Of a stretch of 64,000 nucleotides of DNA, positions 22,152 to 30,509 are shown piece after piece. The notes below the pieces were generated by a model. It worked only from the letters and a program-made list of their open reading frames with translations. It was not told where the DNA came from and ran no database searches. The stretch lies in NCBI GenBank assembly GCA_938009735.1, contig CALLIG010000107.1, positions 12,149 through 76,148 of the forward strand, written 5' to 3'. Source of the stretch: an uncultured Flavobacteriaceae bacterium (GTDB lineage Bacteria > Bacteroidota > Bacteroidia > Flavobacteriales > Flavobacteriaceae). The translations under genes were made by a program, and so were the position numbers. Positions within the stretch are counted from its first letter, which is position 1; every line of letters starts with the position of its first letter.

Positions 22152-22961
22152 TTAGGCATTGGTTGTTTCTAAGGAATTCACCATGTTAGAAGAAACTTCC
22201 TCCAAAGAATCTAACTCGTCCATAACACAGGTAATAAGTTCTTCTTTAAATTCTATTTTCTTTTCAATTTTTATAATATTCTGCAGTCCTTTTATATTTT
22301 GAATGTGCGAGCTGAAAGCATGAGTTTGGTGCCAAGAAATTTCTTTTAATTTTTTGTTCTGAAGGGTGATTTTTTTAATAACCGGATTGATAATAAAGAA
22401 AATTTCAAATAAAACTATTACGATACTTAAAAAAGCCAATTCCAACTCAATTACCATTAAAGTTCGGACCTCTTCTTCTGCTACCTTTTGAAAACGATTT
22501 ACAATAGCATCCATTAATACAAGAAAGCTATCCGCGTTACTTTCTACGCTAGAGATATCTGCTTGTTTTAAATCTTCAATCTTATGAAGATTCGCATACA
22601 GGTAATTTAAATGTTGATCGAGATTAGCAAACATCGAAAGTATCTCCGAATCGCTTAAAGGCTCTAAACCAATTTTAGAATTGCCTTTTTGTAGCGATTT
22701 ATTATTTCTATACAATGCATCTAGTCCTACTTTTAGCTCTGAATAGTTGCATTCTAGGAATCGGCACTCATAAAAATTCGCAAGCACTTGCTGGCTAAGC
22801 ATTCTTTGTTTTCCCGCTATGTTAATAATAGAGGCAGTACTCTGTTGTTTATTCAAGGAATATTGAACAACGGTCTGTATGAAAATTGTTAGAACGATCA
22901 CCGTGAAAACCAATATATAATATTGATAGAAGTCTCTAAATGATCTTTTAGTTTTTGACAT
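22152..22961 (-). CDS. Membrane sensor with NarX/PilJ-type periplasmic domain and a degenerate HisKA-like tail, no ATPase domain
   Basis: TM1, INIAGKQRMLSQ (P-box-like), TM2, coiled-coil, SWHQTH; protein ends ~55 aa later. Confidence 0.7.
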   Translation of the reverse strand: MSKTKRSFRDFYQYYILVFTVIVLTIFIQTVVQYSLNKQQSTASIINIAGKQRMLSQQVLANFYECRFLECNYSELKVGLDALYRNNKSLQKGNSKIGLEPLSDSEILSMFANLDQHLNYLYANLHKIEDLKQADISSVESNADSFLVLMDAIVNRFQKVAEEEVRTLMVIELELAFLSIVIVLFEIFFIINPVIKKITLQNKKLKEISWHQTHAFSSHIQNIKGLQNIIKIEKKIEFKEELITCVMDELDSLEEVSSNMVNSLETTNA

Positions 22962-23125: not shown

Positions 23126-25018
23126 TTAATAAAGTACTCTAAACTTAATCGTATTTTCGATCTTCTTTAGTGCCTTAATTACATCCTTATTATATTCTTT
23201 ATCCAAATCTGTAATTACGTAACCTACCTCGTTATCTGTTGAGAGATATTGTCCAGAAATATTCATTTCGTATTTCGCTAAAACCTTGTTGATTTTCGCC
23301 ATAATACCCGGAACATTCTTGTGAATATGCAAGAATCGATGTGCCTTATTTTGCTTTGGCAATCGAATATTAGGGAAGTTTACCGCATCTACTGTACTTC
23401 CTGAATTCACGTATTCCATTATTTTATTAGGAACAAAGTCTGCGATATTTCTTTGTGCTTCTTCTGTACTACCACCAACATGAGGCGTTAAAATAACATT
23501 ATCCAAGCCTTGTAACTGAGAAATGAAGTCACCATTACTTCGTGGTTCTTCAGGGTACACATCTATTGCTGCTCCACCTAATTTACCTGACTTTAAAGCA
23601 TTTGCTAAAGCCTCAATATCAACTACAAAACCTCGCGCAAGGTTAATGAACATTGCACCATTCTTCATTTGATTGATTTCTCGCTCTCCTATAAAATTCT
23701 TGTTGGCTTTATTGTCATCAATATGTAAGGTAACAACATCAGAAACGTTTAATAAATTTTCGAGTGTGTTACATTTAATAGCATTACCTAATGCTAACTT
23801 ATCATCAATATCGTAGTAATACACGCGCATTCCTATAGCTTCCGCTAAAACTGATAATTGTTTTCCAATATTTCCGTAGCCAACGATACCTAAGTTTTTA
23901 CCACGAACTTCTCTAGAACCAGCAGCAGTTTTCTGCCATTGCCCATTGTGAATTTCTGTACTTCTTGGAAAAACACTACGCATTAACATGATAATCTCAC
24001 CGATAGCTAATTCTACTACAGATCTTGTATTACTATAAGGTGCATTAAAAACCGCTACCCCTTTTCTTCTGCTTGAATCTAAATCTATTTGTGTGGTTCC
24101 AATGCAAAAAGCACCAACTACTAATAATTTGTCAGCTGCATCTAAAACCTTTTTTGTTACCTGAGTTTTCGAACGTATACCCAAAACATGTACACCTTTA
24201 ATCTTTTCGATTAAATCTTCTTCAGATAGACTTGTTTTTATAAGCTCTACTGCAAAACCATCTTCTGATAAATTTTCAAAAGCATCAGTATGCACGTTTT
24301 CTAACAATAGTATTTTGATTCTGTTCTTGGGATAAGAAATATTTCGTGGCAAATCATTCACGAAAAGAAACTCGTCCATATTCGGCGTGATATGATCTGC
24401 ATTACTCGCAGCTTTCTCTCTATGAACATTCTCGGTATATGCAAAAAACTTATCTGCAATTCCCGCTTCACGCATTACATAATCACTATAACCATCGCCA
24501 ATTACCTGAACTTCACCTTCGAGGTCCATTTGTTTTAAGCATTCAATTTTTCCGTTGTGTTGCGATAGTGGGTTTTCTTCATCAAAACCAACAATTTTTC
24601 CATCTTCATCAAATTCAAAAGTATTGGCATACACTCTATCTGAAGGAATATTATAGTCCTTTACAATAGGATCAATAAACTCTTTGAATCCACAAGAAAT
24701 TACATAAATATCATCTGCGAATTTTTCAAAAAACTCTTTATTGGATTCTATGGATTTCGATATTTTTTGACGTAGCTCAGCTACTAAACCATCTAAATCG
24801 CTTTTGTTGGCATTCAATAATTTAATACGTCTCTCTAAAGATTCAGTAAACGAAATATCACCATCGATACCTAAGTTGGTAATTTTTTGAATTTCAGCAA
24901 TTACTTCATCCTTATTTGACTTTCCTTGCAAGGTCATTTCAGCCAAAACATCAAGTGCTTCTACCCTAGTCAATGTACTGTCAAAATCAAAAACGTACTT
25001 TCTACCCACGTCTACCAT
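23126..25018 (-). CDS. serA: Fusion of HAD phosphoserine phosphatase-like domain, D-3-phosphoglycerate dehydrogenase and ACT domain
   Basis: N-terminal FDFDST and GDGYSD (HAD). Then AFCIGT, NTRSVVE, GYGNIG, TPHVGGSTEEAQ. C-terminal HKNVPG (ACT). Confidence 0.92.
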   Translation of the reverse strand: MVDVGRKYVFDFDSTLTRVEALDVLAEMTLQGKSNKDEVIAEIQKITNLGIDGDISFTESLERRIKLLNANKSDLDGLVAELRQKISKSIESNKEFFEKFADDIYVISCGFKEFIDPIVKDYNIPSDRVYANTFEFDEDGKIVGFDEENPLSQHNGKIECLKQMDLEGEVQVIGDGYSDYVMREAGIADKFFAYTENVHREKAASNADHITPNMDEFLFVNDLPRNISYPKNRIKILLLENVHTDAFENLSEDGFAVELIKTSLSEEDLIEKIKGVHVLGIRSKTQVTKKVLDAADKLLVVGAFCIGTTQIDLDSSRRKGVAVFNAPYSNTRSVVELAIGEIIMLMRSVFPRSTEIHNGQWQKTAAGSREVRGKNLGIVGYGNIGKQLSVLAEAIGMRVYYYDIDDKLALGNAIKCNTLENLLNVSDVVTLHIDDNKANKNFIGEREINQMKNGAMFINLARGFVVDIEALANALKSGKLGGAAIDVYPEEPRSNGDFISQLQGLDNVILTPHVGGSTEEAQRNIADFVPNKIMEYVNSGSTVDAVNFPNIRLPKQNKAHRFLHIHKNVPGIMAKINKVLAKYEMNISGQYLSTDNEVGYVITDLDKEYNKDVIKALKKIENTIKFRVLY

Positions 25019-25978: not shown

Positions 25979-26677
25979 TTACAAGTTGATAAAAATGATT
26001 CCAGTAATTATAGCAATACCAAAGCTAATGAGCGTACCTATCAATATATACTCAGTTAACTTTCGACTGTTACTTTCTTTTAAATCATTAAATCGAAAAA
26101 CTGATTTTGCGGTAATTAGTAATCCTATAGCCTCCCAATGATCTAGAATTATAAAGAGCAATACAAAGAGCCTCTCAATAATGCCGATATACTTTCCTGC
26201 ATTTGGCAATGACTTATGATCTATTTCAATTTGATTAGACATTTGCTCTAAAAGCTTACTCATAATAATTGCTGCCGGAAAGCTCACAAATACTACTGCT
26301 GTTATTAAATGCCAATTTAGTTGTTCAAATAATTGTAGGGTATGATCCCATAAACCAGCATAATAAGCGCAACAATACAAGACCAAAATATGTAGTGCCT
26401 GATCAATAAAAAAGGGAATGCTCTTATTCTTAAATATCGGAGTAATGTAAAGTTTTGCAACATCAATGAAATAGTGAGATACCATTATTACCAAGGCAAT
26501 TTTCCAATAACTTAAATCCCACAATAGCAGCATTGTTACCGCAAAATGAAGCAATACATGCAGATACAAGTATTTTGAAGCAGCCTTATTTGCCTCTTTA
26601 TGAATTACCTCTCTTTTGGACTGTAAGACAAAATCAACAATCAAGTGCGCTAAAAAAAGCTTTGTGAACAACATCAT
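25979..26677 (-). CDS. DUF3307 family polytopic membrane protein with conserved His/Asp motifs
   Basis: AHLIVDF, HVLLH, SHYFID, DQALH, GKYIGIIERL, AKSVFRF, EYILIGTL; 4-nt ATGA overlap with the upstream gene. Confidence 0.82.
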   Translation of the reverse strand: MMLFTKLFLAHLIVDFVLQSKREVIHKEANKAASKYLYLHVLLHFAVTMLLLWDLSYWKIALVIMVSHYFIDVAKLYITPIFKNKSIPFFIDQALHILVLYCCAYYAGLWDHTLQLFEQLNWHLITAVVFVSFPAAIIMSKLLEQMSNQIEIDHKSLPNAGKYIGIIERLFVLLFIILDHWEAIGLLITAKSVFRFNDLKESNSRKLTEYILIGTLISFGIAIITGIIFINL

Positions 26678-27285
26678 GGTTTCATACGTTTTACAGTTTG
26701 CGGGTAATATTTTAGCAACTCAAGCACCAAATCTAATCGTGCTCTTTTTTGACGTTGGCTTACGGCAGATTGCTGAATACTAAGCTCTTTGGCTATTTCT
26801 TGCTGTGCCTTTTTAGGGCTTGATAATGCAATAGCAACAATTTCTGCAGAAACGGATGTCCATTCATCCATAAAATCTAAAGCCAATTTTATCATCAAAT
26901 TAAGGCTTTGATCTTCCTTTTTGTTTCCTGTAGCGATTGCTATATTTAATTTGTCTTCTTTCAAAGTCTCGAAGGTTCGACCTGAACGTTTATAAGCTGT
27001 ACCGTTAGACTCACTAACACTTACACCTTTAAAGTCTTCAGACCCTACACCTATTGACATACGAACATCTAAATCTTTGATAGATTTAACAACAGCTTTA
27101 ATTTGTATTGCAGCCCAAAGAGCATTCTTAGGAGCCACTTTAAGTTGAAACTCATCACCTCTGTAAATCTCCCAGTCAGCAGGAGTTTCACCCCATGTAG
27201 CGAACTGTTTCTTAAGTATATTAATCCATCCAGAAGCCTTGTGCTCTTCTGAATTAATAATGTCACCTGTTATAATTGCGATCAT
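26674..27285 (-). CDS. SatD-family protein: nucleotidyl-cyclase-like domain plus C-terminal HTH
   Basis: ITGDIINS, YRGDEFQ, VRMSIGVG, SNGTAYKRSGR; HTH QQEIAKELSIQQSAVSQRQKRA. Confidence 0.82.
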   Translation of the reverse strand: MIAIITGDIINSEEHKASGWINILKKQFATWGETPADWEIYRGDEFQLKVAPKNALWAAIQIKAVVKSIKDLDVRMSIGVGSEDFKGVSVSESNGTAYKRSGRTFETLKEDKLNIAIATGNKKEDQSLNLMIKLALDFMDEWTSVSAEIVAIALSSPKKAQQEIAKELSIQQSAVSQRQKRARLDLVLELLKYYPQTVKRMKP

Positions 27286-27289
27286 AAAA

Positions 27290-27395
27290 TATAAGCTAAA
27301 ACGCTAATATATGTAAATATAAGCTAATTCGCTAATAATTATAAAACATAAGTCAATATACTTATAATTAGTACTTATAAGCTAATTCGCTTATA
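27290..27395. repeat. Four tandem 20-bp imperfect palindromes TATAAGC-N6-GCTTATA, period 28-29 bp (candidate operator array)
   Basis: 27290 TATAAGCTAAAACGCTAATA; 27318 TATAAGCTAATTCGCTAATA; 27347 CATAAGTCAATATACTTATA; 27376 TATAAGCTAATTCGCTTATA. Confidence 0.88.
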
Positions 27396-28670: not shown

Positions 28671-30509
28671 ATGACAAAATTTGAAGCACTAGGGCTTGAT
28701 AAGACCCTATTAGATGCTATTGCCGATTTAGGATTTGAAAACCCATCGGAAGTACAAGAAAAAGCAATCCCTATTTTATTGGAAAGTGAAACCGATTTGG
28801 TTGCACTTGCACAAACAGGAACCGGAAAAACCGCTGCATTTGGTTTTCCGTTAATTCAAAAAATTGATAGCAATAGCAGAACCACACAAGGGTTAATACT
28901 CTCCCCTACTCGTGAACTTTGTTTGCAAATCACCAACGAAATTAAATTGTACTCTAAGTATGAGAAAAATTTAAGTACCGTTGCTATATATGGTGGTGCC
29001 AGCATTACCGATCAAGCCAGACAAATTAAACGTGGAGCACAAATCATCGTTGCTACACCAGGTCGAATGAAAGATATGATTAGCCGACGTTTGGTTGATA
29101 TTTCAAAACTTGATTACTGTGTTTTAGATGAAGCGGATGAAATGCTTAATATGGGCTTTTTTGAGGATATAAAAGATATTCTTTCTAATACTCCTGACGA
29201 TAAATCTACTTGGTTGTTCTCAGCAACTATGCCTAGAGAAGTTTCTACTATTGCCAAAAAATTCATGCATTCACCACAGGAAATAACTGTTGGAACTAAA
29301 AATGCAGGTACTTCAACAGTACAACATGAATATTACGTAGTAAGTGGTAGAGATCGCTACCCTGCTTTAAAACGTTTAGCAGATACCAACCCTGATATAT
29401 TCGCAGTTATTTTTTGTAGAACGAAACGAGATACACAACGTGTTGCAGAAAAATTAATTGAAGACGGATACAATGCAGGAGCAATACACGGAGATTTAAG
29501 TCAAAACCAACGTGATTTGGTAATGAACTCTTTCCGTAAAAAACAAATTCAGATTTTGGTCGCAACTGATGTTGCTGCCAGAGGTATTGATGTTAACGAT
29601 ATTACACATGTAATCAATTACCAATTACCTGACGAAATCGAAACCTATACACACCGTAGTGGTCGTACTGGTAGAGCAGGAAAATCTGGTATCTCAATGG
29701 TATTAGTTACTCGTAGTGAGACACGAAAAATTAAAGCTATTGAAAACAAGATTCAGCAAAAATTCCTCTCAAAAACAGTTCCAACAGGAAGTGATATTTG
29801 CGGGATTCAATTACACCATCTTGCAAATAAAATAAAGGATACCGAAATTAATGACGATGTAGATGAATATCTACCAGCAATTAACGAGATACTAAAAGAT
29901 GTAGATCGTGAAGAATTAATTAAAAAATTAATATCTGCTGAATTTACAAGGTTCTCAAATTACTACAAGAAATCTAGAGATTTGAATTCTGGAGAGCGAG
30001 GAGAAAGAGGAGAGCGTGGAGAAAGAGGAGAACGCGGAGAAAGAAGAGACCGAAGCAATAGAGCAGATGCTCCAACTTCAGGTTCTGTTCGTTACTTTAT
30101 TAATGTTGGTGAAAAAGACAATTATGACTGGATGTCTTTGAAAGATTTCATTCGCGACACCGTAGGTCTTGAGCAAGATGACGTATTTAAAGTAGATGTA
30201 AAAGAAAGCTTTTCATTTTTTAATACAGATGCCGCAGTAACTGATAAAATTCTAGCAACGTTTACTGAATTCAAAGTTGAAGGTAGGTTTGTTAATGTTG
30301 AAGTTTCTAAAAACCCAGGAGGTGGTGGCGCACGAAGAGATCGCAAAAGAAGCGGCGGTGGCGGCAGAGACCGTGGTGGATATGGCGGAAGCAGTAGCGG
30401 AAGTGGTAGAGATAGAAGCAAAAAAAGAGACCGTAGTTACGGAAAAAGCGAAAGCTCAGGTAATAGACGTAGCTCAAGTAGCAAAAAAAGAAAGAGTGAT
30501 TTCTTTTAG
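28671..30509 (+). CDS. deaD: DEAD-box RNA helicase, DeaD/CsdA type, with DbpA RNA-binding domain and RG/RS-rich tail
   Basis: AQTGTGKT, PTREL, DEAD, SAT, ARGID, HRSGRTGRAG; RYFINVG (DbpA domain). Confidence 0.9.
   Translation: MTKFEALGLDKTLLDAIADLGFENPSEVQEKAIPILLESETDLVALAQTGTGKTAAFGFPLIQKIDSNSRTTQGLILSPTRELCLQITNEIKLYSKYEKNLSTVAIYGGASITDQARQIKRGAQIIVATPGRMKDMISRRLVDISKLDYCVLDEADEMLNMGFFEDIKDILSNTPDDKSTWLFSATMPREVSTIAKKFMHSPQEITVGTKNAGTSTVQHEYYVVSGRDRYPALKRLADTNPDIFAVIFCRTKRDTQRVAEKLIEDGYNAGAIHGDLSQNQRDLVMNSFRKKQIQILVATDVAARGIDVNDITHVINYQLPDEIETYTHRSGRTGRAGKSGISMVLVTRSETRKIKAIENKIQQKFLSKTVPTGSDICGIQLHHLANKIKDTEINDDVDEYLPAINEILKDVDREELIKKLISAEFTRFSNYYKKSRDLNSGERGERGERGERGERGERRDRSNRADAPTSGSVRYFINVGEKDNYDWMSLKDFIRDTVGLEQDDVFKVDVKESFSFFNTDAAVTDKILATFTEFKVEGRFVNVEVSKNPGGGGARRDRKRSGGGGRDRGGYGGSSSGSGRDRSKKRDRSYGKSESSGNRRSSSSKKRKSDFF
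29991..30044 (+). repeat. Coding tandem repeat (Gly-Glu-Arg)x6
   Basis: GGAGAGCGA GGAGAAAGA GGAGAGCGT GGAGAAAGA GGAGAACGC GGAGAAAGA. Confidence 0.9.

Follow-up and report, generated by a model that had tools for sequence, protein, structure and literature searches.

The two overlapping genes at positions 25979-27285 of the window, which is the whole stretch of 64,000 nucleotides that was analysed, encode members of the SatD and DUF3307 families. We give an even chance to the reading that they form a self-repressing module of the toxin-antitoxin (TA) type, in which SatD likely represses the operon and likely restrains a harmful membrane partner. The pattern of gene decay, the polarity of published insertion data and the presence of the pair as plasmid cargo argue for such an antitoxin-like, self-repressing SatD and against the CBASS/Pycsar logic of the first-pass annotation, from which the palm aspartates, the gene coupling, the operators and a TA-like dependence are retained, while the CBASS/Pycsar logic and the His-rich site as the core are not. 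In the proposed mechanism SatD would bind the four palindromes upstream of its gene through its helix-turn-helix (HTH) and thereby switch off its own operon, and it would also restrain the membrane partner, which if left unchecked would slow or stop growth. The palm domain might bind a metal and a nucleoside triphosphate, with the ligand or product serving as the switch, and this switch could conceivably act either on the grip of SatD on DNA or on a conserved Arg/Lys/Arg/Tyr/Ser cluster of the partner. The features of the locus are the following.

26674-27285, minus: satD, 203 aa, palm domain and C-terminal HTH; proposed autorepressor with antitoxin-like restraint
25979-26677, minus: partner gene of the DUF3307/SatE type, 232 aa, all-helical membrane protein
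26674-26677, minus: stop-start overlap ATGA (TCAT on the plus strand), shared by the satD and partner ORFs
26923-27285, minus: palm domain (cyclase/GGDEF/Cas10/GCH III-like), SatD residues 1-121, from the AF2 model and fold matches
27262-27264, minus: SatD Asp8, first predicted metal ligand, D in 196/197 dereplicated relatives
27154-27156, minus: SatD Asp44 (GD motif), second predicted metal ligand, D in 197/197
26743-26805, minus: SatD HTH, residues 161-181, recognition helix QQSAVSQRQKR, from Pfam, the model and operator half-site co-variation
26378-26677, minus: His-rich DUF3307 domain (H11, D15, H68, D72, D92, H96), putative optional accessory, absent in 81/142 cassettes
25979-26314, minus: constant C-terminal membrane domain (G165, E168, R169, K191, R195, Y210, G214, S218), without a Pfam family; proposed effector
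27291-27308, no strand: palindrome 1, closest to the start codon, found by pattern; proposed operator
27319-27336, no strand: palindrome 2, found by pattern; proposed operator
27348-27365, no strand: palindrome 3, with a symmetric C-G to T-A change, found by pattern; proposed operator
27377-27394, no strand: palindrome 4, perfect, found by pattern; proposed operator

Both ORFs, their coordinates, the minus strand and the ATGA overlap agree with the first description when re-read in the sequence, and the SatD motifs ITGDIINS, YRGDEFQ, RMSIG and GTAYKR (the G.AY.R motif) are all present.

The two genes were expected to co-occur, and they do: the C-terminal domain of the partner adjoins 185 of 197 dereplicated full-length SatD genes, 5 others lie at contig edges, and among the 7 scored as lacking an adjacent partner one has the partner upstream and one has it frameshifted. 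The partner is located upstream of satD in loci L160 and L170-L173. In the window's family, ten genomes gave a partner hit and no SatD hit; eight of these contain a divergent SatD upstream, one retains a short remnant and one is cut by a contig end, so that all eight intact, checkable partners are preceded by a SatD. In the same family, locus L020 (genome G146) has its partner deleted to the last ~25 codons, with satD and the operator array intact.

Gene decay was surveyed in 201 genomes of a streptococcal-type genus, taken to be Streptococcus from the gene order topA-satD-DUF3307-gid; in a streptococcal-type genome the same pair lies between topA and gid/trmFO. SatD is found in 70 of these genomes, and both genes are intact in 58 (one of them cut by a contig end), the partner alone is broken or missing in 7, both are broken in 5 (two of which are apparently error-rich assemblies) and SatD alone is broken in none. 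The partner frameshifts and losses in the seven genomes lie at different places, where locatable. Locus L231 carries an early frameshift in satD too and is therefore counted among the five genomes with both genes broken. The asymmetry gives a binomial p of 0.011 and a Fisher p of 0.002 without the two noisy assemblies, values which overstate the significance because the genomes are related. Three more streptococcal-type genomes contain partner fragments only. Decay of the two genes thus runs one way, loss of SatD without loss of the partner not being seen, and the TA-like dependence suggested earlier is supported by these counts, and the insertion data for S. pyogenes agree with them.

In S. 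pyogenes satD occurs in 178 of 249 genomes, and no other accessory gene reaches the top essentiality range; it has the maximum score in all data sets (2/2/2), while its only operon mate, followed by trmFO, scores 0/0/0 (PMC11323703). The available tables for S. mutans show insertions at 0.41, 0.21 and 0.21 of the expected number in satD versus 1.46, 1.31 and 1.66 in satE, and satD is non-essential there by the authors' 1% threshold (PMC5806208, Table S2). In S. equi all six libraries shown class the gene between topA and the membrane gene as non-essential, and each of them gives it a lower insertion index than the partner, with 2 to 3.4 times fewer reads (PMC5452409). The S. pyogenes and S. 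equi genes and their partners were matched by gene order and length, not by sequence. A Tn-seq supplement for S. suis contained no searchable satD row. The direction of the effect is the same in the three streptococci and its strength varies. An antitoxin that cannot be lost fits the genome decay and S. pyogenes, and does not strictly fit S. mutans and S. equi. Since satD is non-essential in these two, any toxicity of the partner would be mild, strain-dependent or masked by polar insertions. In PMC11323703 satD appears as a puzzle, being accessory yet essential, and an antitoxin-like role of SatD would explain it.

The pair is also carried on pEC34A (locus L061, NC_019077.1:1765-3481), a ColE-type plasmid of 3770 bp from E. 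coli and K. pneumoniae. Besides rop, mobA and one tiny ORF, its only cargo is a SatD-like gene together with a DUF3307 gene encoding 332 aa, and palindromes precede the pair. The SatD-like protein, which the Pfam SatD profile misses, is identical on six plasmid records, five of them from Klebsiella, and complete E. coli genomes yielded no cassette of this type. This 3.8-kb version offers a ready test system in laboratory E. coli.

TA modules of types II, IV and VII consist of two coupled genes, the first of which is autorepressing and hard to lose, and occur on small plasmids. The SatD cassette is similar in its coupled two-gene operon, in its predicted autoregulation, in a first gene that appears hard to lose and in its presence on small plasmids. 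What sets it apart is a putative toxin formed by a polytopic membrane domain, and neither SatD nor the partner matched a known toxin or antitoxin family. The cassette would work like a TA module or like Panoptes, yet it matches no such family.

The region upstream of satD was described as filled by four palindromes, and these were recovered as ATWAGY-N6-RCTWAT sites starting at 27291, 27319, 27348 and 27377, spaced by 28-29 bp within a 138-nt spacer. Over the whole window a relaxed pattern is not above chance (8 sites seen, 4.9 expected). The clustering is: none of 300 shuffles reached the 29-nt autocorrelation, and 18 of 5000 had three generic palindromes in the 138-nt spacer. Across the upstream regions of 60 loci the best period is 28 or 29 in 53, with p <=0.01 in 45; a strict detector finds arrays at only 87 of 197 SatD loci. 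The sequence of the repeat varies by clade, with symmetric changes. Half-site identity correlates with identity of the recognition helix (partial r 0.35, compared with 0.22 for the next protein window and <=0.13 outside the HTH) in 3741 pairs from 87 arrays, which are not independent of each other and from which overall protein identity was removed. Because their sequence tracks the recognition helix of SatD's own HTH, the palindromes likely are SatD operators; this co-variation strongly suggests DNA sites for that HTH and supports the proposed HTH autorepression as candidate autoregulation.

In 12 of 96 arrays the repeats are placed after satD, between the genes. Sigma70-like promoter sites upstream of satD occur at chance level. 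Promoters of Bacteroidota contain a -7 element, and upstream of satD in 30 loci this element has no fixed position. A wider SatD regulon was considered and rejected: the pattern matches nine sites in the genome, four of them at the cassette, where ~17 are expected by chance.

SatD matches Pfam PF16264 (E 8e-9, 35.8 bits against a curated cut-off of 29), and its residues 161-184 show a weak match to the sigma70-r4 HTH. The AF2 model (pLDDT 97.7), the fold matches and the Pfam HTH are in line with the earlier view of SatD as a palm fold fused to an HTH. The best fold match of the palm is GTP cyclohydrolase III (Z 9.6, rmsd 2.7, 107 aligned residues), followed by Cas10, GGDEF and class III cyclases at Z 8-8.7, none being clearly ahead, and identity to these matches is 10-20%. 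No relative of solved structure was found by sequence search. SatD shares with all four families the palm fold and the two-Asp metal site, and differs from them in a shorter domain, in the HTH fusion and in that the cyclase Asn and Arg are not conserved. Long variants (L068:5001-5795, L176, L178 and L179) contain an insert or extension of ~55 residues near the HTH, with no extra Pfam family.

Conservation was assessed in 253 full-length hits, dereplicated at 90% to 197 relatives. The first Asp is kept in 196 of them, the Ser four residues later in 195 and the second Asp in all 197, so that both predicted metal-binding aspartates of the palm are conserved, as had been claimed, and are not variable. 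Since these Asp and Ser residues are near-invariant, the predicted metal and triphosphate site is likely under selection. The signature of class III cyclases is a transition-state Asn and an Arg after a GxxV motif. With the register set by eye rather than by structure, the Asn position is occupied by H in 84, W in 28, Y in 25 and Q in 20 of the 197 relatives, and the Arg position by R in 142 and G in 49, the window's SatD having G. As this Asn/Arg pair is not conserved, a canonical cAMP/cGMP cyclase activity is unlikely for SatD. It also lacks the GG(D/E)EF signature, having RGDEF in the window; G-D-E-F is kept in the family, with R or L before the G. A palm with invariant aspartates joined to an HTH could represent a new nucleotide-making or nucleotide-sensing regulator.

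A benign one-component regulator is a close rival of the TA-like reading, because the same asymmetry can result when the repressor of any membrane protein is lost, and we regard it as possible though the less probable of the two. SatD would then be a repressor whose palm senses a nucleotide or metal, the partner would be a useful stress or transport protein, and loss of satD would be costly only through overproduction of a membrane protein. The distribution suits this reading: about 89 of the 151 genomes from the window's family carry the pair, which is resident, syntenic and in single copy, and the same upstream gene is kept in 19 of the 30 closest loci of the window's lineage. With a single copy and a fixed neighbour in this family, the cassette resembles a resident gene more than a mobile addiction module. 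It is also found in 58 of 401 genomes of a second phylum sample and in haloarchaea. In the window it is surrounded by housekeeping genes, with a methyltransferase upstream, an alpha/beta hydrolase and a serine-synthesis fusion downstream, and Ham1 and a DEAD helicase farther out; no genomic island is seen at the cassette by GC content within the window. The names of homologues place the source in the Flavobacteriaceae, close to Maribacter and Zobellia. The scarcity of defence genes, with 5 of 109 nearest chromosomal neighbours from 56 loci matching PADLOC (all in one clade, at a threshold of 1e-25 and with no control set), the non-essential satD of two of three streptococci and the variable cyclase positions, the G for Arg in the window's SatD included, are likewise consistent with such a regulator. 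The regulator reading, however, sits poorly with a satD that is essential in all S. pyogenes data sets (PMC11323703), with a pair that is the only cargo of the small plasmid pEC34A, with no regulon outside the cassette, and with a partner whose loss looks cost-free (7 losses in 70 genomes and the Tn-seq scores).

A more tentative version of antitoxin action makes SatD bifunctional. The palm would constantly make a nucleotide signal that holds the membrane effector shut, while the HTH would repress the operon via the phased array. If a phage sponge or a metabolic crash, for instance, drained the signal, the effector would be released and the repression relieved at the same time. This is modelled on Panoptes, in which OptS uses Asp6 and Asp57 and constitutively made nucleotides hold a toxic membrane effector off (PMC12657218). 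OptS and SatD are alike in having a minimal palm with two Asp (D6/D57 and D8/D44, respectively) and, as proposed for SatD, in a synthase-fold protein that restrains a membrane partner, with the same polarity as in the genetics of the SatD cassette. SatD differs from Panoptes in its HTH and operator array and in its all-helical partner; mCpol is absent among the listed Pfam families of 150 SatD proteins (25 of 40) and among the 50 matches listed in the fold search. The polarity fits restraint of the Panoptes type, and is equally compatible with repression or with a nucleotide signal. The rarity of defence genes among chromosomal neighbours counts against a phage guard of this kind. If the Panoptes-like reading were true, SatD would define, next to Panoptes and distinct from it, a second family of inverse-signalling guards, apparently far commoner and present in bacteria and archaea, which would also account for the essentiality of an accessory gene in S. 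pyogenes.

Returning to the TA-like reading, the harmful part of the partner would be its constant C-terminal membrane domain. The all-helical partner consists of two helical parts, and its match to Pfam DUF3307 (PF11750, 81.7 bits against a cut-off of 23) covers residues 3-119 only, leaving a C-terminal domain of ~110 residues with no Pfam family. In 154 loci this domain follows SatD in 142, of which 61 have the His-rich domain and 81 have none; 30 of the latter are short proteins made of the C-terminal domain alone. In 144 aligned rows G165, E168, K191 and G214 are invariant, R169, R195 and S218 are kept in 142-143 and Y210 in 138, and the Arg/Lys/Arg/Tyr/Ser cluster could perhaps bind a nucleotide. 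The fold search with the partner, its two domains folded together, stayed near background (best Foldseek E 2.7; best Z 8.4, to a TetR-type helical bundle), and for the C-terminal domain no match rose above background. When a homologue was used to query a protein atlas, the matches were confined to DUF3307 and unnamed clusters. Loci L035-L059 form a SatD clade with a stand-alone membrane partner of 104-126 aa and no Pfam family; a clade with stand-alone partners is common in one family of the Bacteroidota phylum, where SatD occurs in 26 of 41 genomes.

A further reading, close to the earlier suggestion, puts the functional centre of the partner in its His-rich DUF3307 domain, which would be an intramembrane metal hydrolase degrading a SatD-made signal, and this appears improbable. 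Where present, the domain may be a metal site, as its six His/Asp ligands hardly vary across 104 rows. Thus two HxxxD motifs (H11/D15 and H68/D72) and the DQxxH motif (D92-Q93-H96) of the earlier description stand, while its HxxxH motif does not, H40 and H44 being kept in 74 and 49 of 104. The site is however unlikely to be the core, since 81 of 142 cassettes lack it, among them 30 whose short partners consist of the C-terminal domain alone, and there is no hydrolase fold match; the domain is better seen as an optional extra.

Defence of the CBASS/Pycsar type, in which phage would activate SatD to produce a cyclic nucleotide that turns the membrane effector on, is very unlikely. The layout of a nucleotide-synthase-like fold beside a membrane protein is similar, and of 13 annotated plasmid regions several place the cassette beside Gabija, Pycsar/TIR, AbiEi, HipA or RelE genes, others being neutral; the plasmid copies L073, L063, L071 and L072 lie beside Pycsar/TIR, Gabija, RelA-type/HipA/HEPN and AbiEi genes. 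But this logic predicts that the synthase is freely lost, and the genetic polarity is the opposite: it is unsupported because SatD, and not the partner, is hard to lose (SatD alone broken in 0 of 70 genomes, the partner alone in 7; satD essential in S. pyogenes). Enrichment in defence islands had been proposed as a check. Defence neighbours on chromosomes are few, the five PADLOC matches in that single clade, obtained with no control set, being a methylase, SoFic, a partial mad3 and two TnpB-like proteins, and six SatD and partner proteins matched no PADLOC family at E 0.1, plasmid SatD giving weak matches in the HTH region only. The queries used found no SatD in viral contigs or phage records, except for one HTH-only match. 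Some role of the cassette in defence is possible.

The reading of the palindromes as RNA hairpins, that is a type III-like RNA antitoxin or riboregulator, has hardly any chance: the position of the tandem repeats just before the first gene, their symmetric changes between clades and the 894 of 1044 Watson-Crick arm pairs (for which the detector selects) would suit it, but the arms are only 6 bp and AT-rich, the region matches no Rfam family, the excess of G-T over A-C mismatches (36 vs 22) is no stronger than that of T-T over A-A (33 vs 14) and so gives no RNA-specific G-U excess, and the sequence tracks the HTH helix.

The acid-tolerance name of SatD reportedly derives from the sat operon of S. 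mutans. The SatD and SatE proteins of this operon belong to the same two Pfam families (PF16264 and PF11750) and are encoded in the same order as in the window, where the ffh/ylxM/satC context is absent. The literature searched, with subscription journals and bioRxiv supplements outside its scope, contained no mechanism for SatD or DUF3307 and no paper naming both families. In the parts available, PMC10326533, PMC5786311, PMC8504454 and PMC13492114 contain annotations of SatD or DUF3307 only, and neither the passages of PMC13404961 nor the supplement of PMC12053914 gave anything on either family. The pair is widespread. The conserved domain of the partner has neither a Pfam family nor a fold match.

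Several minor observations concern the neighbouring genes. The ORF at 23126-25018 (minus) combines HAD phosphatase, D-3-phosphoglycerate dehydrogenase and ACT domains by Pfam, a fusion of the SerB-SerA type, and the ORF at 22152-22961 (minus) encodes a 269-aa protein with a PilJ-type sensor domain, in which Pfam detects no kinase or MCP domain. The DEAD-box helicase at 28671-30509 (plus) contains several ERG repeats in a row and ends in a tail rich in Gly, Arg and Ser. RNA reads on satD in one run amount to two 151-nt contigs at depth 2, which is too little for use. In run X2 one contig over 26456-27494 of the window skips three stretches of the cassette, and it most likely derives from the more divergent copy of a related organism.
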